DNA of 43,470 bases from a virus, in IMG/VR virus record IMGVR_UViG_3300032883_000247, positions 1 through 43,470 of that record; one strand, written 5' to 3'. This document shows, piece after piece, positions 1 to 43,470 of this stretch. The translations under genes were made by a program, and so were the position numbers. Numbering within the stretch: position 1 is the stretch's first letter; the number at the start of each line of letters is the position of its first letter. The notes under the pieces were generated by a model. That model worked only from the letters and a program-made list of their open reading frames with translations, did not search any database and was not told the origin of the DNA.

Positions 1-123
1 ACTCTCCCGTTTGCCTAAATAACGAGATGGTTTTTCTGCCATCTTGGTAGGAGGAAAATTATGGATTTGAGAGAAAACGCGGCCACGTTGCTGGCCAAGG
101 TTGGCGGGATCAACGCGAAGTCG
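1..123. repeat. Terminal direct repeat, copy 1 (identical to 43348-43470); most likely a circularisation overlap or terminal redundancy
   Basis: The first 123 nt (actctcccgtttgcc...caacgcgaagtcg) recur exactly as the last 123 nt. The repeat covers the 3' end of CDS 43083-43397 and the RBS plus start of CDS 61-444. Confidence 0.95.
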
Positions 124-444
124 ATCGCCGCCACGCCTCTGATCACTGTTCCCGTGGGGAAATCGATGATCGTCACCGAGATCGTGATCCGCGTCACGGC
201 GTGGGCCGGCGCCGGAGCGGCGGCCACGGTCGGGTTCGGCCAACCCGCCGCCTATACGGACTATCTCGCGGCGGCCGCTCAAGTGGTGGCCACTGGAGTG
301 ACGAATGTCTGGACAAACAAAGCGGCCGTCAAATCGATGCTCGTCGCCTATGCGGCGGGGATCGTTTTCGGGGCTAACGTGACGGTCGGCTCGGCGGCCA
401 CGACGGAGACTTGGGAAATCTCGGTTTTCGGATTCCTCGTCTGA
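61..444 (+). CDS. hypothetical protein at the tail-distal end of the structural module (Ala/Gly/Val/Thr-rich)
   Basis: ATG preceded by taGGAGGaaaatt. 127-aa ORF with no family recognised by eye. Its stop overlaps the next start (TGATG). Confidence 0.7.
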   Translation: MDLRENAATLLAKVGGINAKSIAATPLITVPVGKSMIVTEIVIRVTAWAGAGAAATVGFGQPAAYTDYLAAAAQVVATGVTNVWTNKAAVKSMLVAYAAGIVFGANVTVGSAATTETWEISVFGFLV

Positions 445-3114: not shown

Positions 3115-3323
3115 GGGTCAACGTATCGGGAGAGCAGGTCGTGATCACGATCGAAAAATCCGACGATATCACGATGGCTCTTTCTCTTAACAAGGAAAAG
3201 GAGGAGGCAACGCTCTGCCTCTCGCTCCGCGACCTCTGCCGCTTGGGCGATCTCGCTCAAAACGTGCGGCGTATGGTCGTGGAGGTCACGGGCGAATTTT
3301 CTCTCTACAAAAGGAGGTCTTGA
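3111..3323 (+). CDS. hypothetical early protein
   Basis: ATG preceded by gAGGAGGgccgt. 70-aa ORF. The stop overlaps the next start (TGATG). Confidence 0.7.
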   Translation: MRVNVSGEQVVITIEKSDDITMALSLNKEKEEATLCLSLRDLCRLGDLAQNVRRMVVEVTGEFSLYKRRS

Positions 3324-4609
3324 TGGAAAAAGCACAACTCGTGAGCCACGTCAACACTCACCTCGTGAGTGAGGCGGTGGTTCGGGCCGAGCCGAGGCCG
3401 GAGTTCACGGACTCCTGGCATCCGTTTGCTCATGGCGACATCATCGATGCCGTGAGCGGCGCGTGCGCCTCGCTCGGATGGAAGGTGGGCCGGAAGGAGT
3501 ACGCCATCCGGCAGGGAGCGGAGATGTTCGGCACGTGGGAGATTGGAAATTTCACAAACGCCGAGATGAACTTCGCGCTCGGATTTCGGAACTCGCTCAA
3601 CAAATACTACGCGGTCGGCCTCTGCGCCGGCGCGTTCGTCTTTGTCTGCGATAACCGAGCGTTCCGAGGCGATTTCGTCGTCTTCCGCAAGCACACGGGC
3701 GCGCTCGAGATCGAGGAGATCACGCTCCTCGCGCAGGAGGCTCTCCTCCAACTGCCGGCGAAATTCGATGCGTTCGTAAAATGGAACTTCGGGCTCAAGG
3801 AGCACGGCCTCTCCGATCGCGAGGCGAGCCTGCTCCTCCTCGCGGCGGCCTCGAAGAAAACGCCGCTCGTGCCGCCGAGCAAGATCCCCGAGTTCCGTGA
3901 GCTCTACTTCGATGCCGGCTCAAAGTACACGCGCACGATGCACGGATTCCACGGGGCGGTGACGGAAATGTTCAAACGTCTGAACCCCGTCGAAGTGCCG
4001 TGGAGATCGAGTCAACTCGTGCGGTTCATCGATTACGAAGCACCCCTCTTGCTCGATCCGCGAGAGACGGGGATCGCCAACTGGAACGAGCCGCTCGCTA
4101 ACCTCCCGATGATCGAGGCGGCGGCCGCCAAGAAGGCGAAGGAGCACGGGGAGGCAAAGAAGGCGATCGAGCGCGTCGCGGCCGATCAGATCAAGGCGCG
4201 CGTGACGGAGAAACTCAAGGCCTCCAAGAAGGCCGAGATCAAAGGGCCGCCTTATCCGATCGTCAAGGTCATCCTCACTCCGGAGGAGAAGAAGAAGGCC
4301 GGCATCCTCGTTCCGGCAGAGAAGATCGTTCGGAGAGGGATGATCAAATCGACCGCTCCGGCCAAGAAGGCGCACGCGGCCGAGCCGCCGATCGCCGAGA
4401 AGAAGGCGAAACGGACGCTCAAGAGGAAGATCTCGGAGAAGATCACGGCCGAGCGCACGGCCAAGAAGGCCGCGCCGGCGAAGGGGCGGAAGGCCAAGAT
4501 CCAAGCGTTCGTAGAGCCCAAGATCGGAGACGTCCTGGGCTACCGCTCGCCGTTCGAGGAACTCAACAAGAAACACGGCGGCGGCGGGGAGGGAGAGCCG
4601 AAGGCGTGA
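3323..4609 (+). CDS. DUF932-like phage/plasmid protein with a C-terminal Lys/Ala-rich, histone-H1-like basic tail
   Basis: The core ...LGFRNSLNKYYAVGLCAGAFVFVCDNRAF... resembles the DUF932 signature (NShDgS...G..vfvCsN). The C-terminal ~130 aa are KKA/AKK-rich. ATG 3323 follows aAGGAGGtct; the track ORF begins one codon earlier at TTG 3320. Confidence 0.65.
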   Translation: MEKAQLVSHVNTHLVSEAVVRAEPRPEFTDSWHPFAHGDIIDAVSGACASLGWKVGRKEYAIRQGAEMFGTWEIGNFTNAEMNFALGFRNSLNKYYAVGLCAGAFVFVCDNRAFRGDFVVFRKHTGALEIEEITLLAQEALLQLPAKFDAFVKWNFGLKEHGLSDREASLLLLAAASKKTPLVPPSKIPEFRELYFDAGSKYTRTMHGFHGAVTEMFKRLNPVEVPWRSSQLVRFIDYEAPLLLDPRETGIANWNEPLANLPMIEAAAAKKAKEHGEAKKAIERVAADQIKARVTEKLKASKKAEIKGPPYPIVKVILTPEEKKKAGILVPAEKIVRRGMIKSTAPAKKAHAAEPPIAEKKAKRTLKRKISEKITAERTAKKAAPAKGRKAKIQAFVEPKIGDVLGYRSPFEELNKKHGGGGEGEPKA

Positions 4610-5075: not shown

Positions 5076-5199
5076 GTAGAGGAGAGAGTTCCCCGCCTCT
5101 AGGAGGGCGGGGGAGAAGGAAAAGGGACAATGAAAAAGATGCCTTCATCGTAGGGCGGATGGGGGAGCGTTGTCAAGAGGAAATTTCAAGGGAGGTAAA

Positions 5200-6153
5200 A
5201 TGGACGAAAAAAACGAACAAGGGAAAACCGTCACTCTGCCTCGGCCGGAGGGCGGCGAGATGGGATTGACCGAGATGGATCTGATCGCCGTCCCCCCGGA
5301 GGCGATGCGCCTCGAGCGCGTCGTTGAGCGGACGGAGAAACAGATCGAGGTTTTCAAGAAGATCCGCGTGATCTGCCTCCGGCTCACGAACGAGCGGGAT
5401 TGGCTCTATCAGGGCGACGGGCTCTCGCTCAACGAGACGGGCGCGCAGAAGATGGGGATCGCCTGGGGGATGGATATCAACTGCGACAAAATCGATCTCG
5501 AGTGGGTCTCGGACGATCGGGGCCGCTACTACATCTACACGGCCACAGGCCGAGGATATTCGAAGAAACTCGGCCGGATGATCGAGGATATCGGCACGTG
5601 CTCCTCGAGGGATGATTTCTTCGGGAAGATCGGCAAGGAGTGGAAGAAACTCGAGGACGTCGACATGACGGACGTCAAAAAGAAAGCGGTGACGAACCTC
5701 TACCGCCGCCTCATCACGCGATGCCTCGGGCTCTCCAACGTGACGGAGGCGGAGCTCGCGTCGGCCGGCCTCGATCTCACGAAGATCGAGAAGGTTCTCT
5801 ACGGAGAGGATCGGAAGAAGGCCGAGGCGGAACTCACTCCGGAGCTCCTCGGCAAGCGTGGCGAGATCGAAAAGATCGCTCTGGAGCTCGCTCACGGCGA
5901 TCGCTCGGGAATGAAACCGATCATCAAGGCGGCCTCGACGTGGCAGGACAAGGAGAAAAACGACGTCTTCCGCGAGGACGTGCGCGATATCAAAACCGAG
6001 CGGTGGATTGGGATGACGCTTGATCGAATCAAGGGAACACTCAAGAAGGAAATGCCGGACGTTTTCGCGAAGTTGTATCCCCCCTCTCCCGCCGCGAGCG
6101 CGCCGGCGCAGACGGGGAAGGGATCGGAGAAAAAGGAGGAGCCGAAGAAATGA
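5200..6153 (+). CDS. hypothetical protein; possibly an ssDNA-annealing/recombination protein (ERF/Rad52-like guess, mainly from synteny)
   Basis: ATG preceded by caAGGGAGGtaaa. The segment GRYYIYTATGRGY...DVKKKAVTNLYRRLITRCLGL loosely recalls the ERF core. It lies directly upstream of, and is coupled to, a Cas4-like nuclease. Confidence 0.5.
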   Translation: MDEKNEQGKTVTLPRPEGGEMGLTEMDLIAVPPEAMRLERVVERTEKQIEVFKKIRVICLRLTNERDWLYQGDGLSLNETGAQKMGIAWGMDINCDKIDLEWVSDDRGRYYIYTATGRGYSKKLGRMIEDIGTCSSRDDFFGKIGKEWKKLEDVDMTDVKKKAVTNLYRRLITRCLGLSNVTEAELASAGLDLTKIEKVLYGEDRKKAEAELTPELLGKRGEIEKIALELAHGDRSGMKPIIKAASTWQDKEKNDVFREDVRDIKTERWIGMTLDRIKGTLKKEMPDVFAKLYPPSPAASAPAQTGKGSEKKEEPKK

Positions 6154-7136
6154 ACCCCGCACAACTGATAGAAATCGAGGAGCGGCTAAAGACGCAAATC
6201 GACGTGAACCTCTTGAAGGACACGGGCCATCGGCCGCGCCTCTCGAATTGGGCCGGCGACCTCGGGTTCGCCTGCGATACGTACCAAGTGCTTTGTCGAG
6301 TACGCCCGGATCTCCGGCCGGATACAGATCTCGGGCTCAAAAAGGTCTTCCGCGCCTCCGGACTCCTCGAGACGCCCAATCTCACGCTCATGCAGGAGGC
6401 CGGCCTCCGGATCGTCGAGCAGGCGCGCTCGTATCAGTGGACGGAGAAGAAGATCTCGGGCCGGATCGACGCGAAGATCGCCGTGCCGGAGCTCTCGAAG
6501 CGGCCGATCCCGCTCGAGCATAAGGCTCTCTCTCCGAACTCGTTCCGGACGGTGGCTAAACACAAGGCGGAGGGAATCCCGCTCACGAAGGCGCGCTACA
6601 CGTGGCTCAAAAAATATCCCGGCCAGTTGATGGTCTACGATCTCATGGACGGGGAGGAGTTCGGGACGTGGTTCTTCTTCGAGAAATCCTCCGGCGATTA
6701 TTTCTTCTGGATTCTCCCGCTCGATCTCGCCTACGCGGAGGAGCTCGTGCAGAGAGCCGAGAGGACGAACGAGGCCGTGGAGGCCAACCGGATCCCGGCT
6801 CCCGAGCGGAAGGTGGAGTGCGAGGACTGCGATTTCGAGATGACCCATTGTTTCCCCGGCAAGGATTTCGGCGAGGGCTACGATATCGCGATCGATCGGG
6901 CGGAGCTCAACGAAAAGGCCAAGCGTTTCCTCGAACTCAAACCCATGAAAAAGGAATTCGAGGAGATCGACAGAGAGTTCAAGGAGCTCTACAAGGGGAA
7001 GAATATCCTCCTCGCCGACACGAAGATTTTCTGGAAGGCCTACGAACAATCGCTCCTCGATCTGCCGGAGGATTTGAGGAAAAAGTTCACGAAAAAAGTC
7101 TCGAACTTTAAGATGCACGTGGAGGCATTGAAATGA
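6150..7136 (+). CDS. PD-(D/E)XK nuclease, Cas4/RecB-exonuclease-like, with a Cys cluster
   Basis: GRIDAKI...PLEHKA supplies a D...ExK catalytic motif. An N-terminal Cys (FACDTY) plus a C-terminal CEDCDFEMTHC resemble the Cas4 Fe-S ligand arrangement. ATGA coupling at both ends. Confidence 0.7.
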   Translation: MNPAQLIEIEERLKTQIDVNLLKDTGHRPRLSNWAGDLGFACDTYQVLCRVRPDLRPDTDLGLKKVFRASGLLETPNLTLMQEAGLRIVEQARSYQWTEKKISGRIDAKIAVPELSKRPIPLEHKALSPNSFRTVAKHKAEGIPLTKARYTWLKKYPGQLMVYDLMDGEEFGTWFFFEKSSGDYFFWILPLDLAYAEELVQRAERTNEAVEANRIPAPERKVECEDCDFEMTHCFPGKDFGEGYDIAIDRAELNEKAKRFLELKPMKKEFEEIDREFKELYKGKNILLADTKIFWKAYEQSLLDLPEDLRKKFTKKVSNFKMHVEALK

Positions 7137-7786
7137 AAAAAGAAACGGAAGTCCTGGCTCTCTCGGCTCGCGTTCGAGCCGTCGAGCTCGTGGTGGCCGA
7201 TGGGCCCTCGCTCGCTCTGATGAAGGAGTATCTCACGGAGAACAAGACGATCCAGGGCGAGATCATGGCGTTTTTCAAACCGATCAAACAGAAAACGGAC
7301 GAGGCGCACCGGCAGGCCTGCGCCGATGAGGCGCGATTCCTCCTCCCGCTCCGCGAGGGAGAGAAGGTGGCCAAGACGAAGATTGCCGGCTATATCGACG
7401 CCGAGCGGAGGAAACAGGAGATCGCGGCCGAGATCAAGAGGAAGGCACAGGAGGAGGCGAACCGGCTCGTGGACGAGACGCTCGCCAAGGCCGCGGTGGC
7501 CAAGACGCCGGAGGAGGCCGACCGCCTGATCGATGAGGCGGCCGCGAAGGAGATCGAGATCATCCAGACGGCGCCGCCGCCTCCGGCTCGGCCGTCGACG
7601 GATGGGATCGGGATTCGCGAGGAGTGGCACTACGAGATCACGGACGAGGAGGCGATACCGAAGGAGTGGTGGATGCTCAATCTTGCGGCGATCGCGGAGC
7701 ACGGCCGGAAGAACAAGGAAAAGGCCTCGATCCCGGGCGTCCGGTTCTGGAAGGAGACGGCGATCTCGGGCATGAGGAGAGGATGA
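7133..7786 (+). CDS. hypothetical coiled-coil protein in the recombination module
   Basis: 217-aa ORF coupled to the nuclease gene. The central region is charged and helical (AAEIKRKAQEEANRLVDE...). Confidence 0.7.
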   Translation: MKKETEVLALSARVRAVELVVADGPSLALMKEYLTENKTIQGEIMAFFKPIKQKTDEAHRQACADEARFLLPLREGEKVAKTKIAGYIDAERRKQEIAAEIKRKAQEEANRLVDETLAKAAVAKTPEEADRLIDEAAAKEIEIIQTAPPPPARPSTDGIGIREEWHYEITDEEAIPKEWWMLNLAAIAEHGRKNKEKASIPGVRFWKETAISGMRRG

Positions 7787-10958: not shown

Positions 10959-11131
10959 AGTTTGAGATCGCGGTCATCATTTTCCTGGGCGTCATCGTGC
11001 AGGTGTTGACGTTCCTCCTCGGATTCCTTCTCGGAGGCCGAGAGGCTGAAAAGAAGGCGAGGCAGGAGGCGGCGAAGGTGCTCAAGGATGCGCTCGGGAT
11101 ATTCGAGAAAGCAGGAGGTAAACCATCATGA
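10955..11131 (+). CDS. small single-TM protein, holin-like candidate
   Basis: 58 aa. N-terminal TM FEIAVIIFLGVIVQVLTFLLGFLLGG followed by a charged tail. RBS aAAGGAGGtgaaaac. It overlaps the start of the RlpA-like muralytic gene (ATGA). Confidence 0.55.
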   Translation: MKFEIAVIIFLGVIVQVLTFLLGFLLGGREAEKKARQEAAKVLKDALGIFEKAGGKPS

Positions 11132-11721
11132 AAAAACGAGAGCCTTATGAAATCTATCACCTTGTGAGCAAACGATTTCTTATCGCGGCCTTCGCCGTGC
11201 TCGCGCTCTTTGCGCTCTACGCCTCGGTTTCGGCGGTGCGGACGACGCTCGATATCAACGCACTAAAGGAGGAGGTGGCGCAGAACGGCCGGCTCATCAA
11301 CGTGCTCGGCCGGCAATCGGCCGCGCTCGTGGAGAAAGTTGGCGCGCTCGAGCGATCCCTCCAAATCCTAACGACCGGCTCGGAGGTCGGACTTGCCTCG
11401 TGGTACGGGCCCGGATTCCATGGCCGGCCAACGGCGGGAGGCGCGATCTTTGACAAAGACGCGAAAACGGCCGCTCATCGAACCCTCCCTCTCCAAGCGA
11501 TTGTTCGGATCTTGAACCTGATGAACGGGAAAACCGCCGTGCTCCCGATCACGGATCGAGGGCCGTATAACGGAGAGCCGCCATTTTGGAGCGGGAGGAT
11601 TATCGATCTCTCGGAGGGAGCGGCGCGCGATCTCGGGATGATCGAGCCCGGCGTCGTGCCGGTTCTCGTCACGCACCTCTCTATCACGCTCCCCTCGGCG
11701 AGGCCGAGCACACAGGATTAG
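11128..11721 (+). CDS. RlpA-like (DPBB_1) lytic transglycosylase with an N-terminal membrane anchor
   Basis: GLASWYGPGFHGRPTAGGAIFD...TAAHRTLP...PITDRGPY...RIIDLSEGAARDLG matches the RlpA double-psi beta-barrel signature. The N-terminal segment FLIAAFAVLALFALYASVSAV is Ala-rich. Confidence 0.8.
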   Translation: MKKREPYEIYHLVSKRFLIAAFAVLALFALYASVSAVRTTLDINALKEEVAQNGRLINVLGRQSAALVEKVGALERSLQILTTGSEVGLASWYGPGFHGRPTAGGAIFDKDAKTAAHRTLPLQAIVRILNLMNGKTAVLPITDRGPYNGEPPFWSGRIIDLSEGAARDLGMIEPGVVPVLVTHLSITLPSARPSTQD

Positions 11722-11725
11722 GCCG

Positions 11726-11977
11726 ATGGCAGAGGAGAAAGAAAAAACGGCCGATCTCGGGCGATGTATCGGCAACGCTCGCGGCTCGAGTATCGAGTTT
11801 TGGAGAACCGCCTATTTCTCCAAGATCGGCAACAAGGATTTTATCGATGGCCTCCTCGGCGCGATCTGGTGGCTCGCGCGGTGGGTGGATGGCCGGCAAG
11901 TCGTCGGGGTGCTCGAAGATCCCTATGAGCTCGTCGTCCACGAGATCAAGATCGCGCTCGAGTATCCGGAGGTATGA
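11726..11977 (+). CDS. hypothetical protein
   Basis: 83-aa ORF. The stop overlaps the next small ORF start (ATGA). Confidence 0.6.
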   Translation: MAEEKEKTADLGRCIGNARGSSIEFWRTAYFSKIGNKDFIDGLLGAIWWLARWVDGRQVVGVLEDPYELVVHEIKIALEYPEV

Positions 11978-12111
11978 TGCATCTGCTCGTCTTGTTTTGG
12001 AGGGTCGTCGTGTTCGTGATCATCACGACCGTGGTCGGCTCCGTGATTACTGTCGGATACTGCCTCCTCACGCTCCTTGCTCGGCTCGAGGATCGGGAGG
12101 GCCGCCGATGA
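11974..12111 (+). CDS. small hydrophobic membrane peptide (45 aa; below the ORF-track cutoff)
   Basis: Hand translation: MMHLLVLFWRVVVFVIITTVVGSVITVGYCLLTLLARLEDREGRR. ATGA overlaps with both flanking genes. Confidence 0.5.
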   Translation: MMHLLVLFWRVVVFVIITTVVGSVITVGYCLLTLLARLEDREGRR

Positions 12112-13115
12112 TCTGGCCGGAGGATTTCGTCGATCGGATCGTCTGCGGAGACGCGTTCTTGTCGATCGAGGAGATTCCTGATGATTCGATCGATGCGGTG
12201 GTCACGTCGCCGCCGTTCTGGAAATGCCGGGATTTCGGGATCGACGCTCAGATGGGACAAGAGGAAACACACACGAAATATATCGATACTCTCCTCGCCG
12301 TCTGCGTTGAGCTCCGCCGCGTGCTCCGGCCGGAGGGCTCGCTCTGGATCGAACTCGGCGATCAATACGGGGGGAGCGGCAAAGGCCACGGCGACAAAAA
12401 GCGGGATCCGAAATTCCGCGAGGGCGGGAGGGAGCGATCGATCGAGCCGGCGCGGGACGGATATCCGAGGAAATCGCTCTACCTCCTCCCGTTCCGTTTC
12501 GCGACCGAGATGGTATCGCTCGGGTGGCTCTGCCGCAACGTCGTGATCTGGCAAAAACCGAACGTGATCCCCGAGAGCGCGAAGGATCGGTTGACGGTCG
12601 ATTTCTCTTACGTTTTTTTCTTCGTGAAATCCCGCCGCTACTACTTCGATCGCCTCCTCGATCCCGTTCAGCCGGACTCGATCCGGAGGGCGGGACGGGG
12701 TGTTTCGATGCACCATAAATATCGCGACGGCGCGCCTGGAGTGCGCCGCCACACGATGCACCAACCGCGCGAAAACGTCCGGCACGAGGGGCGCGGGATC
12801 GTGGCCTCGCGGTTCGTCCAACCGGAGATGAGAAACCGCCGCGCCGTGCGGACGATCCCGACGCGAGCGTTCGCCGGGCCTCATTTCGCCACGTTTCCAG
12901 AGGAGCTCGTAGAGCCGATGATTCGCGCCTCCTGTCCTCCGGGCGGCCTCGTGCTCGACCCCTTCGTCGGCACGGGTACTGTGGCGGTCGTGGCGCGAAA
13001 GACGGGCCGACGTTTCGTCGGCATAGATCTGAATCCCGAATACTGCGCGATCGCCGAGCGGAGGATCGCCGAGATTCTCCCGCTCGAGTTCCCGCGAGGA
13101 GAGGAGAAACGATGA
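12108..13115 (+). CDS. beta-class N4-cytosine/N6-adenine DNA methyltransferase (SPPF motif IV)
   Basis: Motif IV DAVVTSPPFW is near the N-terminus and motif I VLDPFVGTGTVAVVA near the C-terminus, which is the beta-class order. ATG 12108 overlaps the upstream stop. The long upstream extension in the ORF track (from 11586) overlaps other genes and is Arg/Ser-rich. Confidence 0.85.
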   Translation: MIWPEDFVDRIVCGDAFLSIEEIPDDSIDAVVTSPPFWKCRDFGIDAQMGQEETHTKYIDTLLAVCVELRRVLRPEGSLWIELGDQYGGSGKGHGDKKRDPKFREGGRERSIEPARDGYPRKSLYLLPFRFATEMVSLGWLCRNVVIWQKPNVIPESAKDRLTVDFSYVFFFVKSRRYYFDRLLDPVQPDSIRRAGRGVSMHHKYRDGAPGVRRHTMHQPRENVRHEGRGIVASRFVQPEMRNRRAVRTIPTRAFAGPHFATFPEELVEPMIRASCPPGGLVLDPFVGTGTVAVVARKTGRRFVGIDLNPEYCAIAERRIAEILPLEFPRGEEKR

Positions 13116-16359: not shown

Positions 16360-16890
16360 ATGCCTCCCTTCGAACCAAAACGAATCGTGATTCACCACTC
16401 GGCGGAGCTCGATCTCCCTACGATCGAGTGGAGCGGGATCCGGCGTTATCAAACGTCCCACCGGATCGACTATACGACGGTGACTCCCGAGGAGTTCGTG
16501 CGCCGCAAGGCGGCCGGCGAGGGCTCGCGCTTTGAGGAGCCGTGGCTCGATATCGGCTATCACGCCGGCGTCGAACGCGCCGAAGGGGAGTTTGAGATTC
16601 TCTACGGCCGATCGTGGATCATGCCGGGCGCGCACGTAATCGGCTACAACTCGACCTCACTCGGCCTCTGTTTCCTCGGCAACTTCACGTCCGAGCCGCC
16701 CTCGGATCGCCAACTCGCGGCCGGCGCGAGGATCATCCGAGATTGGATCTTCCTCTTTTCGATCGGAATGGAGTGGATATCCCGCCACGATGAGCTCAAC
16801 CCAGGACTCACGGCTTGTCCAGGCGCGGCCTTCGATCTCGCTCGTTTGATCGATATGGTGGCGACGCTCATCAAGGGCGGCTCGCTCTAG
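16360..16890 (+). CDS. N-acetylmuramoyl-L-alanine amidase (Amidase_2/PGRP, T7-lysozyme-like) endolysin
   Basis: IVIHHSA...DIGYHAGV...GAHVIGYNSTSLGLCFLGNF...HDELNPGLTACPG matches the Amidase_2 zinc-ligand and fold pattern. Confidence 0.9.
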   Translation: MPPFEPKRIVIHHSAELDLPTIEWSGIRRYQTSHRIDYTTVTPEEFVRRKAAGEGSRFEEPWLDIGYHAGVERAEGEFEILYGRSWIMPGAHVIGYNSTSLGLCFLGNFTSEPPSDRQLAAGARIIRDWIFLFSIGMEWISRHDELNPGLTACPGAAFDLARLIDMVATLIKGGSL

Positions 16891-17115: not shown

Positions 17116-17347
17116 CTGCCCTGCCCGTTACGTACCGCCGACAATTCCCCCACCGGCCGGAGCGGCCGAGATCGCAGGGAAAATCATCGCCGGCGCGCCT
17201 CCGGTCTTCGAGCCGGGCGTCGATCCGAAAGGCTCGTTCTTTGTGGTCACGAAGGCCTACGTGAACTATCATTATTTCCTTCAACAGGATAACAAAGAGC
17301 TCCGCCTTGAGGTCGAGGAACTCCGCGCAAAGTTGGCGAAAAAATGA
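17039..17347 (+). CDS. secreted, possibly lipid-anchored, Pro-rich protein with a C-terminal coiled coil (spanin-like candidate)
   Basis: GTG 17039 preceded by GGAGcGGGAGGAG. N-terminus MRNFSRLWTKWTWLLLTLCLLSFGVNCPARYVPPTIPPP is a signal-like segment with Cys followed by a Pro-rich stretch. It is overlapped with the upstream ORF, as in Rz/Rz1-type arrangements. Confidence 0.5.
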   Translation: MRNFSRLWTKWTWLLLTLCLLSFGVNCPARYVPPTIPPPAGAAEIAGKIIAGAPPVFEPGVDPKGSFFVVTKAYVNYHYFLQQDNKELRLEVEELRAKLAKK

Positions 17348-19553
17348 ACATCGTGCGCGTCCCGATCTCTAACGTCGTGCCGTGGGATAAGAATCCTCGG
17401 AAAATCAAGAAGGACGATTTCGCTCGCCTCAAAAAGCAGATCACGGAGCTCGGCGTCTATAAACCGCTTGTCGCCTATGCGGAGAACGGCCGCTACGTCG
17501 TGCTCGGCGGAAATATGCGCCTCCGCGCGCTCCAAGAACTCGCCTACGGAGAGGTGGACGTCTCCGTGGTGGAAGTGAAATCCGAGGCCGAAAAACTCAA
17601 ATTCAACCTCTCCGATAACGATCGCGCCGGCGAATATGATGATCAGGCTCTCGCGGAGCTCGTTCTGCCGCAACTCGAGGCGATCGATCTCGAGCAATAC
17701 AAGGTGGATATCGGAGAGCCGATGGATCTGCGTATGCTCCTCGGCGAGTTCGCTCCAGGCGGCGTCGATCCCTCCGTCGTCACGGATCGTCCCTCGCTCG
17801 CCGATCGTTTCCTCTTTCCTCCTTTCTCCGTCTTCGATGCGCGCCAAGGCCTCTGGATCGCGCGCAAACGATCCTGGCTCGGCCTCGGCATCCAATCGGA
17901 GGTCGGGCGCGAGGAGAACCTCCTCGGATTCTCGCGCCACATCATCAACAAGGATTTCTATATCTCAAAGCGGGAGGGGTACGTCGATTTTCCCGAGGGC
18001 GGCGATGCCGTCTACGAGAAAAACAAAGGCACGTCGGTCTTCGATCCCGTCCTCTGCGAGCTCCTCTACCGATGGTTCGCGCCGCTCCGAGGCCGTGTCC
18101 TTGATCCCTTCGCCGGCGGCTCCGTCCGTGGGATCGTCGCCTCGCTCCTCGGCCTGGAATATACGGGCCTCGATCTCAACGATGCGCAGATCGAGGAGGA
18201 TCGCAAACAGGCGGAGGCGATTTGTCCGGGGAAGTTCCGGCAGGCGGCCGAGGAGGCCGACTCGCTCGAGACGACGCCGATCGAGCGGCGGGGCCCGTAT
18301 TGGCTCAAACGCGATGATCTCTACCGCGTGGCCGGTGCGGCGGGAGGCAAGGCGCGCGCGGCCTGGGCCCTGGCTCAAGGCGCGAAGAACGGCCTCGTGA
18401 CGGCCGGCTCGCGCTCCTCGCCTCAGGTGAATATCGTCGCTCACGTCGCTCGCCGCCTCAACCTCCGATGCCGAGCCCACGTGCCGAGCGGTGCGTTGAC
18501 GGAGGAGCTCGAACTCGCGGCCGCCACCGGCTGTGAGATCGTCCAACATGAGCCCGGCTACAACAACGTGATTATGGCTCGTGCGCGGGAGGATGCGGAG
18601 GATCTTAAATTCCGCCTCATCCCCTTCGGTATGGAGTGCGCCGAGGCCGTCGAGCTCACCTCCGCGCAGGTGCGCGATATCCCTCCGGAGGTCAAGAGGA
18701 TCGTCGTCCCCGTGGGCTCCGGCATTTCGCTCGCCGGCATCCTGCAGGGGCTCTATCGGAATAACTCCTCGATCCCCGTGGTCGGCGTCGTCGTGGGCGC
18801 GGATCCCGAAAAGCGGCTCGATCAGTTCGCGCCTCCCGATTGGCGCGAGCGTGTGATCCTCGTTCGGCCCGACGTTGAGTATTCAACACCCGTAGAGGCC
18901 AGTATCGAGGGCGTGACGCTTGATCCGATTTACGAGGCAAAGTGCGCGAAATTCCTCCAACCCGACGACCTCCTCTGGATCGTCGGCCTCCGCGCCTCCG
19001 AGCGGCGCGAGCCGGTCGTCCCGCCTCTCTGGATCGCCGCCGATGCGCGGAACATCGATTGCCTTGATCTCAAACACCCCTACGATTTCGTCTTCTCCTG
19101 CCCTCCCTACTATATGACCTCGAGAAATATACCGATAAACCCGAAGATCTCTCAAACGCTAAGACCTACGAGGCCTTCCTCGCCGATTATAGATCGATCA
19201 TCGCTCGCTCGCTCGAGCTCCTCCGGCCGAATCGCTTCGCCTGCTTCGTCGTCGCCGATATCCGAGATAAGGACGGATTCTATCGCAACTTCGTGGCCGA
19301 CACGATCCGAGCGTTCGAGGACGCCGGGGCGCGCCTCTATAACGATGCGATGCTCGTGAATACGTGCGGCCTTCTTGCGGTGCGGATTTCCAAGCAATTC
19401 ACGACGGCTCGAAAACTCGGCAAGGTTCACCAGAACGTCCTCATCTTCTTCAAGGGCGATCCGGAGCGGATACGAGAGGATTTCCCGAAAATCGTCGCCA
19501 CAATCCCCATGGATGAGGCGATAAACGAACAAAAACCGGAAAAAACGAGTTAA
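17344..19553 (+). CDS. ParB-like nuclease domain / DNA methyltransferase fusion with an inserted PLP-dependent enzyme module. The reading frame is interrupted at about 19114-19115 (part 1 17344-19113, part 2 19116-19553).
   Basis: ParB/Srx N-terminus (VPWDKNPRKI, VLGGNMRLRAL). MTase motif I VLDPFAGGSVRG. PLP-enzyme-like segment (WLKRDDL...GGKARAAW...VPVGSGISLAGI...LDPIYEAKC). MTase motif IV FSCPPYY. After tac-tat the MTase-like sequence DLEKYTDKPEDLSNAKTYEAFLADY...FACFVVADIRDKDGFY...LIFFKGD continues only in the -1 frame. Confidence 0.8.
18268..18993 (+). other. inserted fold-type-II PLP-dependent enzyme-like domain (ACC deaminase / D-cysteine desulfhydrase family resemblance) within the methyltransferase
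   Basis: ETTPIERRGPYWLKRDDLYRVAGAAGGKARAAWALAQGAKNGLVTAGSRSSPQ...RIVVPVGSGISLAGILQG...GVTLDPIYEAKCAKFLQPDDLLWIVGLR parallels the DcyD/ACCD landmarks (KRDD, GGNKxRKLE, ITAG..QSN, glycine loop, LDPVYTGKA). Confidence 0.7.
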
Positions 19554-19576: not shown

Positions 19577-20023
19577 ATGCCTAAAACCGGTCGTCCAACA
19601 AAATACAAGGGCGAGGAGTCGATCCGCATCGTCGAGGAGATCACGGATCGCATGACCTTTAAAGACTTTTTCTCCACCTGCGGCCTCGAACACCTCGCCG
19701 CCGCCCTCGGCACGCATCGCGAGATCTTGTGGGAGTGGAGGAAGAAATACCGCGACTTAGATAACGCCGTAAAAAAATGGGAGAGCAAGCGGAACTCTCT
19801 ATTCTACGGCCTCTCGATGAGGATGCAACCCGGCGTGTGGGTGTTCCTCGCCAAGAATTGGCTCGGGATGAAAGACACCCAGGAGCATACGATCGGCGGA
19901 GGGAGCAAGTCGGTGAAGATCCGGATCGTGCCGGCCTCGCCTCGAGCTCCGATCGTGGGCCGGCCCACGCCGGCAAACGGGGTGAACGGGAAAGATGAGA
20001 GCGGAAAAAACGGTCGAACGTAG
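19577..20023 (+). CDS. terS: terminase small subunit
   Basis: N-terminus MPKTGRPTKYKGEE plus an HTH-like LAAALGTHREILWEWRKKY and FLAKNWLGMKD fit a common TerS pattern. It sits immediately upstream of, and overlaps, TerL. Confidence 0.75.
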   Translation: MPKTGRPTKYKGEESIRIVEEITDRMTFKDFFSTCGLEHLAAALGTHREILWEWRKKYRDLDNAVKKWESKRNSLFYGLSMRMQPGVWVFLAKNWLGMKDTQEHTIGGGSKSVKIRIVPASPRAPIVGRPTPANGVNGKDESGKNGRT

Positions 20024-21218
20024 GAAGTGGGAGGCGACCCGCGTCTTCTTTGCAAACGAGGAGGCGCATCAAACGGTCGTCGTCAACGTGGGCGGGGCCC
20101 GTTCCTCGAAATCCTATTCGATCGCTCAACTCCTCGTGACAAAATTCTTCGGGGAGACAAAAAAGCACTTTCTCACGTGCCGGAAAACGCTCCCCGCGCT
20201 CCGGCAAACGGCCTATAAAGTGGCGGTCGACCTCCTCATCGAGTTTGATCTCTATCGTTTCGTCGAGCACAACAAGTCGAATCGCACGCTCTTTTCCCCG
20301 TCGAACCATAATTTCTGGATTTTCACGTCGATCGATAATCCGGAGAAGATCAAATCGACGGAGTTTAACTATATCCACATGGAGGAGGCCAACGAGTTCT
20401 CCTACGACGACTACCGCATCCTCAAACTCCGGCTCTCCGGCCAAACGGAGGGGAGAGAGAAAAACCAGATGTTCCTCTCGCTCAATCCCTCCGATGAGTT
20501 CGGGTGGATCAAGAAAACACTCCTCACCGAGGGGGGATTCGATCTGATCCACAGCACCTATCTCGATAACCCGTTCCTGCCGGCCGACTACATCGAGAAC
20601 CTCGAGCGGCTCGGCCAACAGGATGAGACATATTGGAAGATCTACGGCCTCGGCGAGTGGGCGCACGTGAAGGGCCTGATCTTCGGGCCGCCGAGGATCG
20701 AGATCGCCTTCCCCGAGGTCGATGAGACGATTTACGGCCTGGATTTCGGCTACAACAACCCGACCGTTTTGCTCGAGGTCGGCGTTAGAGAGTGGGATGC
20801 TTATCACCGCGAGGTGATCTATCAAACGCGCCTCACGAACTCGGAGTTGATCGATCTGATGAAACAACGCCTCTCGGCCTACGAGCGGAGGAGGCCGATA
20901 TACGCCGACTCGGCCGAGCCGGCGCGGATCGCCGAGATCAACGCGGCGGGATTCAACGTCTATCCGGCGAAAAAGAACGTGCTCGACGGGATCGATTTCT
21001 GCAAACGATTCACGCATCACTCGCTCGCCGAGAACGTGAATTTCAACCGCGAGTGGCCAACCTACAAATGGAGAATCGATCGGAACGGCGTCACGCTTGA
21101 CGAGCCGGTTAAATTCGAGGATCATTGTCCCGATGCCGCGCGCATGGCTCTATATACGCACCTCGCAGGGGCGGAGAGCGGCGCGTTTATCGGGTTCACA
21201 AAAGAGGACGTCTATTAG
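19995..21218 (+). CDS. terL: terminase large subunit (PBSX/terminase_6-like)
   Basis: Walker A-like VNVGGARSSKSYS and Walker B-like FNYIHMEEANE, followed by a C-terminal nuclease-type region. 407 aa. Positioned between TerS and the portal gene. Confidence 0.9.
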   Translation: MRAEKTVERRKWEATRVFFANEEAHQTVVVNVGGARSSKSYSIAQLLVTKFFGETKKHFLTCRKTLPALRQTAYKVAVDLLIEFDLYRFVEHNKSNRTLFSPSNHNFWIFTSIDNPEKIKSTEFNYIHMEEANEFSYDDYRILKLRLSGQTEGREKNQMFLSLNPSDEFGWIKKTLLTEGGFDLIHSTYLDNPFLPADYIENLERLGQQDETYWKIYGLGEWAHVKGLIFGPPRIEIAFPEVDETIYGLDFGYNNPTVLLEVGVREWDAYHREVIYQTRLTNSELIDLMKQRLSAYERRRPIYADSAEPARIAEINAAGFNVYPAKKNVLDGIDFCKRFTHHSLAENVNFNREWPTYKWRIDRNGVTLDEPVKFEDHCPDAARMALYTHLAGAESGAFIGFTKEDVY

Positions 21219-43082: not shown

Positions 43083-43397
43083 ATGGGCTATACTGATGGC
43101 GACAATTTCATCGATGGCGCGGTTCTCTCGTTTCAGGAGATGAACCGGATCAAAAACAACTGGCGTGCCGCCGCCGCTCCGGCCAACATTCAGCCGGGGA
43201 TGCTTTTCTCCGACTCCGACGATGATCGGCTCTACCATCGCGGGGCGGCCTCGGCGAGGGAACTCTATCAGCACGTAGTGAGCCGGACGACGCTCCCGCA
43301 GTTCGCGAACACGGATTTCAAAGCGATAAACGCGGTCTGTCTAAATGACTCTCCCGTTTGCCTAAATAACGAGATGGTTTTTCTGCCATCTTGGTAG
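43083..43397 (+). CDS. hypothetical tail-fibre-associated protein
   Basis: RBS tAGGAGataaat. 104 aa. The N-terminus MGYTDGDNFIDGAVLSFQEMNRIKNN resembles tail-fibre N-termini. The 3' end lies inside the terminal repeat. Confidence 0.65.
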   Translation: MGYTDGDNFIDGAVLSFQEMNRIKNNWRAAAAPANIQPGMLFSDSDDDRLYHRGAASARELYQHVVSRTTLPQFANTDFKAINAVCLNDSPVCLNNEMVFLPSW

Positions 43398-43470
43398 GAG
43401 GAAAATTATGGATTTGAGAGAAAACGCGGCCACGTTGCTGGCCAAGGTTGGCGGGATCAACGCGAAGTCG
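43348..43470. repeat. Terminal direct repeat, copy 2 (identical to 1-123)
   Basis: Exact 123-nt match to the window start. The implied unit genome length is 43347 bp. Confidence 0.95.

Follow-up and report, generated by a model that had tools for sequence, protein, structure and literature searches.

A phage ParB-methyltransferase gene with a nested PLP-dependent domain hints at DNA modification by a SAM-derived amino(carboxy)propyl group

The gene at positions 17344–19553 of the analyzed window (the whole stretch of viral DNA, 43,470 nt, from the IMG/VR record IMGVR_UViG_3300032883_000247) encodes, in this order, a ParB_N domain, the N-terminal half of a methyltransferase (MTase), a nested fold-type-II PLP-dependent domain (PALP), and the C-terminal half of the MTase. 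All features described here are located on the plus strand. This architecture suggests that, instead of simple methylation, the DNA undergoes an undescribed modification with an amino(carboxy)propyl group from SAM. The gene might encode a fused two-step DNA hypermodification enzyme, in which the 3-amino-3-carboxypropyl (acp) group of SAM would be transferred to a DNA base and would then be decarboxylated by the PLP domain to an aminopropyl group; we assign this reading, which is derived from sequence comparisons, a probability of about 0.45. A sequence-only reading of the same DNA had described the four elements in the same order, and all of them, as well as every motif that it quoted, were found in the claimed places, whereas its uninterrupted reading frame was not. 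Its interpretation was likewise upheld in part: the nesting of the PLP domain stands, and chemistry beyond plain methylation that uses the aminocarboxypropyl part of SAM is favored by the present evidence, but the family assignment of the PLP domain did not hold, and a role in target recognition is disfavored.

The presence of a PLP domain inside the MTase fold is supported by profile searches and by structure prediction. PF00291 (PALP) matched the excised module at aa 317–488 with 64.9 bits (cut-off 35, E = 1e-17) and the full protein with 61.7 bits. The full extent of the module, aa 311–556 (18274..19011), was set by family landmarks beyond the Pfam match. In the AF2 model, the PLP part has pLDDT values of 90–97, and the insertion falls between helix 280–293 (helix B) and strand 562–565 (strand 3) of the Rossmann fold. 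With Foldseek, the top 50 PDB matches, with E-values as low as 3e-11, belong without exception to the fold-type-II PLP enzymes, the best being D-cysteine desulfhydrase (DCyD) and ACC deaminase (ACCD) homologs. Lys336 in the GGKAR motif (18349..18351) is the predicted Schiff-base lysine; its counterparts in the alignments are K51 of 4d8t and 1f2d, K36 of M6 gp52, and K92 of ViI gp226. The S359-P360-Q361 motif (18418..18426), which is S-N-Q/H in ACCD/DCyD, is shared with ViI gp226. The glycine-rich phosphate-binding loop VPVGSGISLAGI (18706..18741), assigned by alignment, contains G458-S459, and the Y530-E531 pair (18931..18936), which is Y-D in M6 gp52, includes an acidic residue for which a place next to the pyridine N of PLP is predicted, like that found in ACC deaminase. 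Lys336, the SPQ motif, the glycine loop, and Y530-E531 are invariant among 30 homologs with 44–53% identity. The module is predicted to be catalytically intact and is strongly constrained, with 37 synonymous and one non-synonymous codon differences relative to contig L005 (described below). The claim that a real, conserved PLP domain with intact lysine and glycine loop is inserted at this place was thus borne out.

Judged by profile comparisons, the closest characterized relatives of the module are ViI gp226 (YP_004327553) and M6 gp52 (YP_001294560), not ACC deaminase. Its best PHROG is phrog_3650 (E = 1.9e-34, covering only positions 40–241 of the 392 profile positions), the archetype of which is ViI gp226 (E = 2.5e-241), and the match to phrog_7093, the M6 gp52 family (E = 6e-14), spans almost the full length of that profile. 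An hhalign comparison with ViI gp226 gave 97.4% (E = 1e-11) and placed K92 opposite K336. Like the module, gp226 and gp52 are small phage fold-type-II PLP enzymes with an aligned Schiff-base lysine; gp226 shares the SPQ, GYN, and Q..iP..PxGS motifs and the glycine loop, and gp52 the acidic residue after the C-terminal Tyr. Biochemical work has established both enzymes as decarboxylases of amino-acid:nucleobase conjugates in phage DNA (Lee et al., NAR 2022, PMC8989533). However, the identity to them is just 24–27%, the alignment spans only about the first two thirds of gp226, and, unlike in these systems, the module is invariably paired with an MTase-fold enzyme that depends on SAM and in many cases belongs to the same polypeptide. 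The substrates of gp226 and gp52 are made by a 5-hmdU kinase and an amino-acid:DNA transferase, neither of which was found in the scanned ORFs of the window; searches of 30 window ORFs with Pfam or PHROGs detected no dUMP hydroxymethylase, 5-hmdU kinase, or aGPT-Pplase. Therefore, SAM is the sole evident amino-acid donor. Decarboxylation as the reaction of the module is not assured, because fold-type-II PLP enzymes catalyze many reactions.

The nested architecture was observed in 120 or more database clusters; many metagenomic viral contigs have it, and so do a few cultured phages, with an intact gene in, for example, Pam4, vB_EliS_R6L, and Cooper-like mycobacteriophages. Among 80 PALP-seeded viral loci, 54 have the nested form, always at one identical site, five have a C-terminal fusion, and the PALP gene lies directly downstream of the MTase gene in five and upstream in 12, while three loci lack an MTase. 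The free-standing form of the module is a gene of about 250 codons before or after the MTase gene. A few PALP genes have no MTase within 6 kb (L006, L058, L068, L079, and L082), and no third gene recurs beside PALP and MTase across the 80 loci. The MTases of this clade and PALP thus constitute a conserved system of two components. Its PLP part is a partner in its own right, and nesting is one of several arrangements, not the essential feature. No description of the nested ParB/MTase/PLP architecture was found in the literature, although, by the numbers given above, it is not rare.

The remainder of the protein is a ParB-MTase fusion. The ParB_N domain (ParB-CTPase fold, aa 3–82, 17350..17589) was recognized by PF02195 (29.1 bits, cut-off 26.3), this part is matched by ParB-like PHROGs at E = 1e-21, and the GGNMR box with the box-II Arg is found at 17506–17520. 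It is followed by an N-terminal extension of the transferase (aa 150–245, 17791..18078) with the conserved pattern DRFLFPPFSVFDARQGLW..RKRSW..GIQSE.GR and then GTSVFDPVLCELLYRWF. This extension, which may contact DNA, also exists in the insert-less phiFL3A gp36. Motif I, the cofactor-binding loop VLDPFAGGSVRG (18097..18132), is in a "G..R" state that, by its residues, appears to suit SAM that still has its carboxylate. Strand 2 with motif II, EYTGLDL (18157..18177), has the conserved D/E at its acidic end. Downstream of the module, the Rossmann fold resumes, according to both motif and AF2 model, with strand 3 and motif III, PLWIAADARNI (19024..19056). Motif IV, CPPY (19099..19110), aligns with TDPPY of Trm-G10 5e71 and is present in 169 of 170 clade members, irrespective of the partner. 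In a comparison with amino-MTases, motif I (DPFAGGSVRG) is present, but motif IV has a Cys instead of D/N/S. The C-terminal half with motifs V–VIII (19116..19550) is encoded in a shifted frame and matched the Cpart HMM at E = 7e-57. A match to phrog_498, "DNA methyltransferase", has E = 2e-101; PF01555 (N6/N4 DNA amino-methyltransferase) stayed below the gathering threshold (26.2 versus 26.7 bits, in two stretches). Within the CPPY clade, no enzyme with an experimentally established target specificity was found.

The insert-less fusions of the type of phiFL3A gp36 (Enterococcus) and B054 gp77 (Listeria) share ParB_N, the N-terminal extension, FAGGSVRG, and (S/T)CPPY with the window protein, are 39% identical over the shared parts, and also lie upstream of terminase genes, but they lack the PLP insertion of about 245 aa, and their genomes have no PLP gene. 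ParB-N6_N4 MTase fusions of phages have been surveyed without mention of PLP (PMC12704722). Partner-less relatives of this type may be plain methyltransferases.

A second partner gene was found in a sister clade. A gene for S-adenosylmethionine decarboxylase (AdoMetDC, PF02675) comes directly after insert-less MTases of the clade in 49 of 80 MTase-seeded loci, a sample that is skewed to the ZRG1 (AdoMetDC) clade, and the same holds for the phages P2559S and ZRG1. In Croceibacter phage P2559S (genes 66/67) and Pseudomonas phage ZRG1, a transferase of the same clade occupies the same genomic place and has an obligatory decarboxylase neighbor; unlike the nested PLP module, this decarboxylase is pyruvoyl-dependent, has an unrelated fold, and is encoded by a separate gene. 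The P2559S enzyme has been proven to be functional (PMC9992855). PALP and AdoMetDC never co-occur in the surveyed loci. The state of motif I tracks the partner: it is G..R in 83 of 83 PALP-partnered enzymes and D..F in 52 of 52 AdoMetDC-partnered enzymes (FAGDtVFG in the P2559S and ZRG1 type instead of FAGGSVRG). The D..F loop is confined to the AdoMetDC-partnered sister clade, and a dcSAM-type loop, with an acidic residue and loss of the carboxylate-binding residue, is absent from the window protein, which has G..R. Such a loss of Arg and gain of Asp in the cofactor loop is what would be expected if SAM were exchanged for dcSAM. In the spermidine synthase PfSpdS, Asp127 binds the aminopropyl N of dcAdoMet (PMC4356361), and the motif I Asp may be its counterpart, by analogy rather than by structural superposition. 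A PDB profile search with the transferase retrieved DNA MTases only and detected no sequence relationship to acp or aminopropyl transferases.

These features can be combined into a model of two consecutive reactions. The ParB domain would carry the protein to DNA, where the class-I core would bind SAM and transfer the acp group, instead of or besides the methyl group, to a base, with release of MTA; candidate acceptor atoms are an exocyclic N or the pyrimidine C5. The presentation of C-gamma, not of the methyl group, to the acceptor is the premise of the model, and no feature of the sequence speaks for it. Via Lys336, the PLP module would then form a Schiff base with the amino acid on the DNA, at its alpha-amino group, and decarboxylate it, yielding a cationic 3-aminopropyl base. 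In the sister phages, the order would be reversed: the pyruvoyl-dependent AdoMetDC would make dcSAM, and a dcSAM-adapted transferase (G to D, R to F) would move the aminopropyl group. We propose, more tentatively still, that the phages of this group carry a SAM-derived 3-aminopropyl or acp decoration of DNA that is reached by two convergent routes (acp transfer plus PLP, or AdoMetDC and dcSAM).

Comparable transfers are performed by TYW2, Tsr3, TapT, discadenine synthase, and spermidine synthase, in which the C-gamma of SAM or dcSAM is attacked and MTA is released; TYW2 and spermidine synthase also use the class-I MTase fold. The proposed chemistry is alike, but these enzymes act on RNA bases or small molecules instead of DNA. 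To our knowledge, none of them has a fused decarboxylase, and we know of no acp- or aminopropyl-modified DNA base. A precedent for two aminopropyl routes exists in polyamine biosynthesis, where either dcSAM is used or a carboxylated intermediate is formed and then decarboxylated.

The main rival to the acp model is that the core is an ordinary DNA (N6-A or N4-C) methyltransferase, and that the PLP module is an auxiliary enzyme that acts off DNA, on SAM/SAH-derived or other amino-acid metabolites or in counter-defense, and became fused merely through a common anti-restriction setting. The PALP-type transferases indeed combine the SAM-type motif I with all other motifs of partner-less relatives such as phiFL3A gp36, which is annotated as an adenine MTase, and some PALP genes have no MTase nearby. 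In addition, "polyvalent" phage proteins often join independent anti-defense domains (PMC5512222), and phage AdoMetDC has been interpreted as a component of polyamine metabolism, not of DNA modification (Li et al., PMC9992855). However, the in-frame insertion into the Rossmann fold is kept in more than 100 divergent clusters, the two genes are adjacent in both orders, and C-terminal fusions exist, which argues for direct coupling. Furthermore, the nearest characterized PLP relatives work on DNA-linked amino acids, and the cofactor loop of the sister clade changes exactly with the AdoMetDC neighbor, which would make no sense for a methyl donor. On balance, we consider plain methylation unlikely.

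A rather improbable alternative is that the PLP module is itself a SAM decarboxylase, an analog of AdoMetDC that hands dcSAM to the core, so that the product would be the same and decarboxylation would precede transfer. The mutual exclusion of PALP and AdoMetDC at the same genomic position would be explained, nesting next to the cofactor site would suit channeling, and the Y-E pair speaks for a strong electron sink of the kind that suits decarboxylation. Yet none of the 83 PALP-partnered transferases has the D..F loop, and the characterized PLP relatives decarboxylate DNA-bound, not free, substrates. We also know of no PLP-dependent AdoMetDC.

The sequence-only reading had placed the module in the ACC deaminase/D-cysteine desulfhydrase family, and a small-molecule lyase of this type might break down SAM-derived ACC or vinylglycine or desulfurize cysteine. 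These enzymes (PDB 1f2d, 1tzk, 4d8t, and 1j0a) are the best PDB matches by sequence and by fold (with Foldseek, E = 3e-11 and a target TM of 0.6), they share the KRDD...GGxK, glycine-loop, and DP(V/I)Y(E/T)xK motifs, and the Y530-E531 pair is that of true ACC deaminases (Y294-E295; Y-T in DCyD). Nevertheless, the module does not appear to be a member: the equivalog models (TIGR01274, NF003030, and others) scored only 16–36 bits against NCBIfam cut-offs of 289–610; of the ACCD pair S78-N79, the Ser is kept but an invariant Pro takes the place of the PLP-O3' Asn79; and the module, with about 245 aa compared to about 340, is about 95 residues shorter. The phage families phrog_3650 and phrog_7093 are nearer than any cellular family, and, unlike ACCD/DCyD, the module is embedded in a DNA enzyme, an obligatory link for which a lyase does not account, so that this function is very improbable. 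Least credible of all is a non-catalytic target-recognition or regulatory domain, as had also been suggested: the loop position tolerates insertions, but the Schiff-base Lys and the phosphate loop do not vary, nor do the other active-site residues, the module often occurs as a protein of its own, and the insert-less MTases of the clade are complete.

If the acp model is true, alkylamine groups from the amino-acid end of SAM would constitute a new class of natural DNA modification. The acp and aminopropyl transfers, familiar from tRNA, rRNA, and polyamines, would for the first time have an equivalent on DNA. The model would also account for the PLP enzymes in or beside hundreds of phage "DNA methylases" as well as the AdoMetDC genes next to ParB-MTase and terminase genes in many marine phages, and many phage "speD" auxiliary metabolic genes would have to be reassigned from polyamine synthesis to DNA modification. 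A cationic DNA tether made by one polypeptide would bear on the evasion of restriction and CRISPR and on charge neutralization during packaging, and it could provide a one-gene tool for site-specific amine labeling of DNA. Even if the enzyme is a plain methylase, the strict partnership with PLP enzymes or AdoMetDC and the covarying cofactor loop demand an explanation.

The gene is followed directly by a putative small terminase gene (19577–20023) and the large terminase gene (19995–21218; 19577..21218 in total), with Terminase_3 detected on the orthologous contig; a terminase-adjacent position was also observed in ZRG1, phiFL3A, and many other loci. The frame-corrected CDS joins 17344–19113 to 19116–19550, with the stop codon at 19551–19553, and encodes 735 aa. 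It had been described as one continuous ORF, with a mention of frame correction, but the frame is broken in the window because of an extra TA at 19111..19115 (TACTA[TA]TGACC). As a result, the listed ORF (17344–19359) ends with about 80 aa from the wrong frame, and the true C-terminus is read in another frame up to the stop at 19551–19553. Either the assembly is in error here, or the gene was inactivated very recently. Contig L005, which is 98% identical to the window, lacks the TA insertion and encodes an intact 726-aa ortholog (P0001) that is 100% identical in the protein comparison.

The gene of interest lies at 17344–19553 on the plus strand of the window. The ORF listing and the three-frame translation revealed a single gene, the frame of which is interrupted once. 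The uncorrected ORF (17344–19359, 671 aa) ends with about 80 residues that are low-complexity and out of frame, while past ...FSCPPYY the protein resumes in another frame as DLEKYTDKPEDLSN..., with the stop codon at 19551–19553. Joining 17344–19113 and 19116–19550 yields a 735-aa protein, and all motifs quoted in the sequence-only reading were found in this frame-corrected protein, where that reading had placed them. Its description of one continuous ORF applies to P0001, the intact database orthologue (726 aa), which is uninterrupted and differs from the window protein by one residue and at the extreme C-terminus, but not to the window itself, where an extra TA within 19111–19115 breaks the frame. 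The contig that encodes P0001 (L005) is 98% identical to the window DNA across the gene and lacks the TA (two bases are missing at window 19111–19112); a further indel of about 25 nt separates the 3' ends, with the window protein ending in ...DEAINEQKPEKTS and P0001 in ...DEAI. The codon differences between the two copies, 37 synonymous and 1 non-synonymous, point to strong purifying selection on the gene. A programmed frameshift was rejected, because a slippery site is absent and the shift is missing from the 98%-identical contig. The frameshift of the window either is an error of sequencing or assembly or arose by mutation very recently, and P0001 or a cultured carrier is a better experimental entry than the frameshifted copy.

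Pfam detected ParB_N at aa 3–82 (above threshold), the fold-type-II PLP domain PALP (PF00291) at aa 317–488 (62–65 bits versus a cut-off of 35), and N6_N4_Mtase in two stretches, slightly below threshold. In the PHROGs database, phrog_498 'DNA methyltransferase' also matched in two stretches (E 2e-101), ParB-like families were matched as well, and the middle part matched phrog_3650 (E 2e-34) and phrog_7093 (E 6e-14). An AlphaFold2 model, for which 30 homologues served as input, had a mean pLDDT of 81 (90–97 in the PLP part) and placed the insertion point between helix 280–293 and strand 562–565, which in the Rossmann fold correspond to helix B and strand 3. In a Foldseek search against the PDB, the top 50 hits were all fold-type-II PLP enzymes, the best being D-cysteine desulfhydrase (DCyD, 4d8t) and an ACC deaminase homologue (1j0a); no chain among them has the composite architecture. 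In an alignment with the insert-less gp36 of Enterococcus phage phiFL3A, about 245 residues stand where gp36 has a 12-residue link, and all remaining motifs are common to both proteins, including the unusual (S/T)CPPY motif IV. Taken together, the domain, model and alignment results show that the initial anatomical description, a ParB domain followed by a methyltransferase (MTase) split by a PLP module, was accurate. The N-terminal extension of the transferase (window 17791–18078, aa 150–245) is also strongly conserved, with invariant Trp and Arg residues, and carries DRF.(F/V)PPFS, which resembles another (x)PP(F) motif in degenerate form.

Among 30 full-length homologues (44–53% identity), the PLP part is the best-conserved region; K336, K322-R323-D325, T353-A354-G355, S359-P360-Q361, G458-S459, D527, Y530-E531-K533 and V547-G548 are invariant. 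The predicted Schiff-base residue K336 aligned to Lys51, the Schiff-base Lys of DCyD and ACC deaminase (ACCD), so that the catalytic Lys sought within PF00291 was recovered; the Gly loop and DP(I/V)YE align too. Judged by these residues, the PLP module is intact. Although these landmarks of the proposed ACC deaminase/DCyD family are there, membership in that family was rejected: the Asn that follows the catalytic Ser is an invariant Pro in the window module, the module is about 95 residues shorter, and all NCBIfam equivalogs were missed, with scores an order of magnitude low. The best PHROG for the module, phrog_3650, has gp226 of phage ViI as its archetype (E 2.5e-241), and hhalign of the module profile with gp226 gave 97.4% probability (E 1e-11), with K92 opposite K336; both also have the motifs SPQ, GYN and Q..iP..PxGS, which are specific to the family. 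M6 gp52, which belongs to phrog_7093, aligned over 226 columns (E 2e-5), with K36 on K336 and FYDLK on IYEAK. M6 gp52 and ViI gp226 are PLP-dependent decarboxylases, which in DNA turn C-alpha-glycinyl-T and O-seryl-T into 5-NedU and 5-NeOmdU; a model of gp226 was based on 1j0a and has K92 as its Schiff-base Lys, and the corresponding Lys of gp52 is K36 (Lee et al., PMC8989533). On these matches and alignments, the module is best described as a member of a phage small-PALP clade, the known members of which decarboxylate DNA-attached amino acids. Unlike in M6 and ViI, where substrate-making genes exist, no dUMP hydroxymethylase, 5-hmdU kinase or amino-acid:DNA transferase was found among the 30 window ORFs scanned.

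Searching with a profile built from just the insert recovers many stand-alone proteins of about 250 aa with 50–64% identity. The same profile served to collect 80 viral loci, each of which was scored by HMMs for ParB, the MTase N-half, PALP and the MTase C-half. The nested form in a single ORF, always with the same insertion point, is the most common configuration (54 of the 80 loci). In addition, PALP is joined to the C-terminus of a complete MTase in 5 loci, is a separate gene directly downstream in 5, an upstream gene in 12, and lies on the opposite strand in 1, while in 3 loci the fetched stretch has no MTase. The separate form is present in the mycobacteriophages AlanGrant and Vincenzo, in which gene 1 encodes a ParB-MTase and gene 2 a PALP. 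In AlanGrant (L001:1–2275), and alike in Vincenzo, gene 2 is labelled 'nucleoside deaminase' or 'carboxylate deaminase' and is actually a PALP of phrog_3650 (E 3e-106); these public annotations are probably wrong. A programmed frameshift or split gene was rejected for AlanGrant, where an entire insert-less ParB-MTase is encoded by gene 1 and a stand-alone PALP by gene 2, and so was a selfish insertion of the PALP ORF splitting the MTase at locus L007, where the 363-aa upstream ORF contains both MTase halves. No third conserved pathway gene was found around the 80 PALP loci; the recurrent neighbors are terminase and portal genes downstream. By these arrangements, the system is a two-component unit, of which nesting is just the commonest packaging.

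Several loci have additional features. In L008:6001–8294 and L009:4120–6413, an HNH_3 endonuclease ORF apparently interrupts the MTase gene that lies behind the PALP gene, at a point after the N-terminal part and before motif I, which may represent a split gene or a homing-endonuclease insertion. A 253-kb viral contig (L043:3932–8635) carries three tandem ParB-MTase paralogues with a nested PALP in the middle one only, and in L060 and L061 a second paralogue adjoins the PALP-containing one.

In Croceibacter phage P2559S (L099:3667–5308) and Pseudomonas phage ZRG1 (L100:4092–5937), the ParB-MTase gene overlaps at its 3' end with a gene annotated as S-adenosylmethionine decarboxylase (AdoMetDC, SpeD), and terminase genes follow. 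For P2559S, the protein was shown to be a genuine AdoMetDC, and speD genes of this kind have been treated as polyamine genes (Li et al., PMC9992855). Among 80 further loci (L101–L180), fetched with an insert-less MTase profile and biased to the ZRG1 clade, so that the proportions do not represent population frequencies, 49 have an AdoMetDC homologue directly downstream (PF02675 confirmed), 3 a PALP-like gene and 27 neither partner; one locus is truncated. The ORFs of about 110 aa downstream of the MTase in the 27 loci do not seem to hide an AdoMetDC: by eye they resemble small terminases (HTH and GDTxAxIFWLKT), not SpeD. The two partners are mutually exclusive, with no AdoMetDC in any of the 80 PALP loci or in the window. 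A neighbour-joining tree built from 170 MTase cores groups the AdoMetDC-partnered enzymes in one block and the PALP-partnered enzymes in another, within which nested and separate forms interleave.

The group consensus sequences differ at few positions, and the difference is sharp in motif I, which reads LDPFAGGSVRG in the PALP-partnered and partner-less enzymes and FDcFAGDtVFG in the AdoMetDC-partnered ones. Motif I covaries with the partner: G..R is found in 83/83 PALP-partnered and D..F in 52/52 AdoMetDC-partnered enzymes, and the partner-less enzymes have G..R in 30 cases and D..F in 2. Of these two, L093 covers a shorter stretch of the ZRG1 locus, where AdoMetDC is present, and the L150 stretch stops right after the MTase, leaving the downstream neighbor outside it. 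Motif IV is shared, with CPPY in 169/170 cores; its Cys as a PALP-specific adaptation was rejected, because it is clade-wide. Arg to Phe and Gly to Asp changes in the loop that binds the methionine moiety of SAM would be expected if the carboxylate of the cofactor is lost. The aminopropyl nitrogen of decarboxylated SAM (dcSAM) is bound in spermidine synthase by an Asp, Asp127 in PfSpdS (PMC4356361). The positional likeness to the motif I Asp is an analogy, as a PDB profile search gave DNA MTases only and no spermidine synthase. We take the spermidine synthase Asp to be located in the glycine-rich motif I.

The AdoMetDC-type transferases appear to be built for dcSAM, the sole sensible use of which would be aminopropyl transfer, and the PALP-type transferases, including that of the window, keep the SAM-type loop. 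Given a dcSAM-suited loop in one type and a SAM-type loop with a decarboxylase-like partner in the other, the simplest scheme would comprise two routes to one product. In the first route, AdoMetDC would turn SAM into dcSAM, and the aminopropyl group would then be moved onto DNA; in the second, the 3-amino-3-carboxypropyl (acp) group of SAM would be moved onto DNA and then undergo PLP-dependent decarboxylation there. For acp transfer from SAM to bases there are precedents in tRNA, rRNA and discadenine. Polyamine biosynthesis has the same duality, dcSAM routes versus carboxylated intermediates that are later decarboxylated. The analysis shows homology, linkage, mutual exclusivity and covariation, whereas the group leaving SAM, the type of reaction of the PLP module and the product are inferred; for the acceptor atom, an exocyclic nitrogen and pyrimidine C5 are both compatible with the motif IV Cys. 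We place the system with the post-replicative hypermodification of phage DNA, see a substantial chance that its modification is of a new class, and assign the full two-route model, including acp transfer and on-DNA PLP decarboxylation, a tentative probability of roughly 45%.

A plain methyltransferase accompanied by an auxiliary PLP enzyme, which is unlikely yet the most serious competitor, would fit the retained MTase motifs and the existence of partner-less relatives, but leaves unexplained both the in-fold fusion and the cofactor-loop switch of the sister clade. It is still less probable that the PLP module is a PLP-dependent SAM decarboxylase supplying dcSAM to the core, given that the G..R loop is invariant in the PALP-type enzymes. 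An ACC-deaminase-type lyase is highly improbable in view of the Pro for Asn, the shorter chain and the missed equivalogs. The target-recognition role that the sequence-only reading had considered, with a non-catalytic module, is the least credible, as occurrence of the same module as a stand-alone gene or C-terminal fusion argues against it.

The two-route model concerns a widespread architecture. A protein search of 5.8 billion sequences gave 2062 matches among the scored candidates, and the best 120 of these all combine PF00291 and PF01555, with or without PF02195, so that the ParB, MTase and PALP combination sought in databases was indeed recovered. The nested form also occurs in cultured phages, namely Pam4 of Pseudanabaena and vB_EliS_R6L and ZS04 of Erythrobacter, where GenBank labels it 'pyridoxal-phosphate dependent enzyme' or 'DNA modification methylase'. 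In vB_EliS_R6L, a PAPS-reductase-like gene (gp7, L004:2535–3578) is located some 1.5 kb upstream of the nested gene; it was not seen as a recurrent neighbor in other loci. The ParB domain, the class-I MTase fold and the gp226-like PLP enzyme are of known kinds. The full-text literature searched, which most subscription journals lie outside, describes neither a PLP-containing ParB-MTase nor acp or aminopropyl DNA, and the same holds for the obligatory pairing, for nesting and for the chemistry predicted here. A 2025 survey of ParB-CTPase fusions includes ParB-N6N4 MTases of phages and never mentions PLP (PMC12704722).

Window positions 1–124 are repeated exactly at 43347–43470, and this terminal repeat of 124 bases indicates a complete, circularly closed phage genome of about 43.35 kb. 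In the Pfam and PHROGs scan of the window ORFs, the large ORFs at 411–1817, 3320–4609 and 5170–6153 had no family match. A second, conventional DNA methyltransferase is encoded at 11586–13115 on the plus strand (PF01555, 151 bits, residues 202–491 of 509; phrog_67). A 197-aa ORF upstream of it (11128–11721, plus strand) overlaps it by 136 nt, which might reflect another frame problem or an N-terminal extension. Other genes encode a DUF7715 protein (2549–2953), a Cas4-like exonuclease and a second exonuclease (6150–7786), and an Amidase_2 endolysin (16360–16890), the last just upstream of the ParB-MTase-PALP locus.
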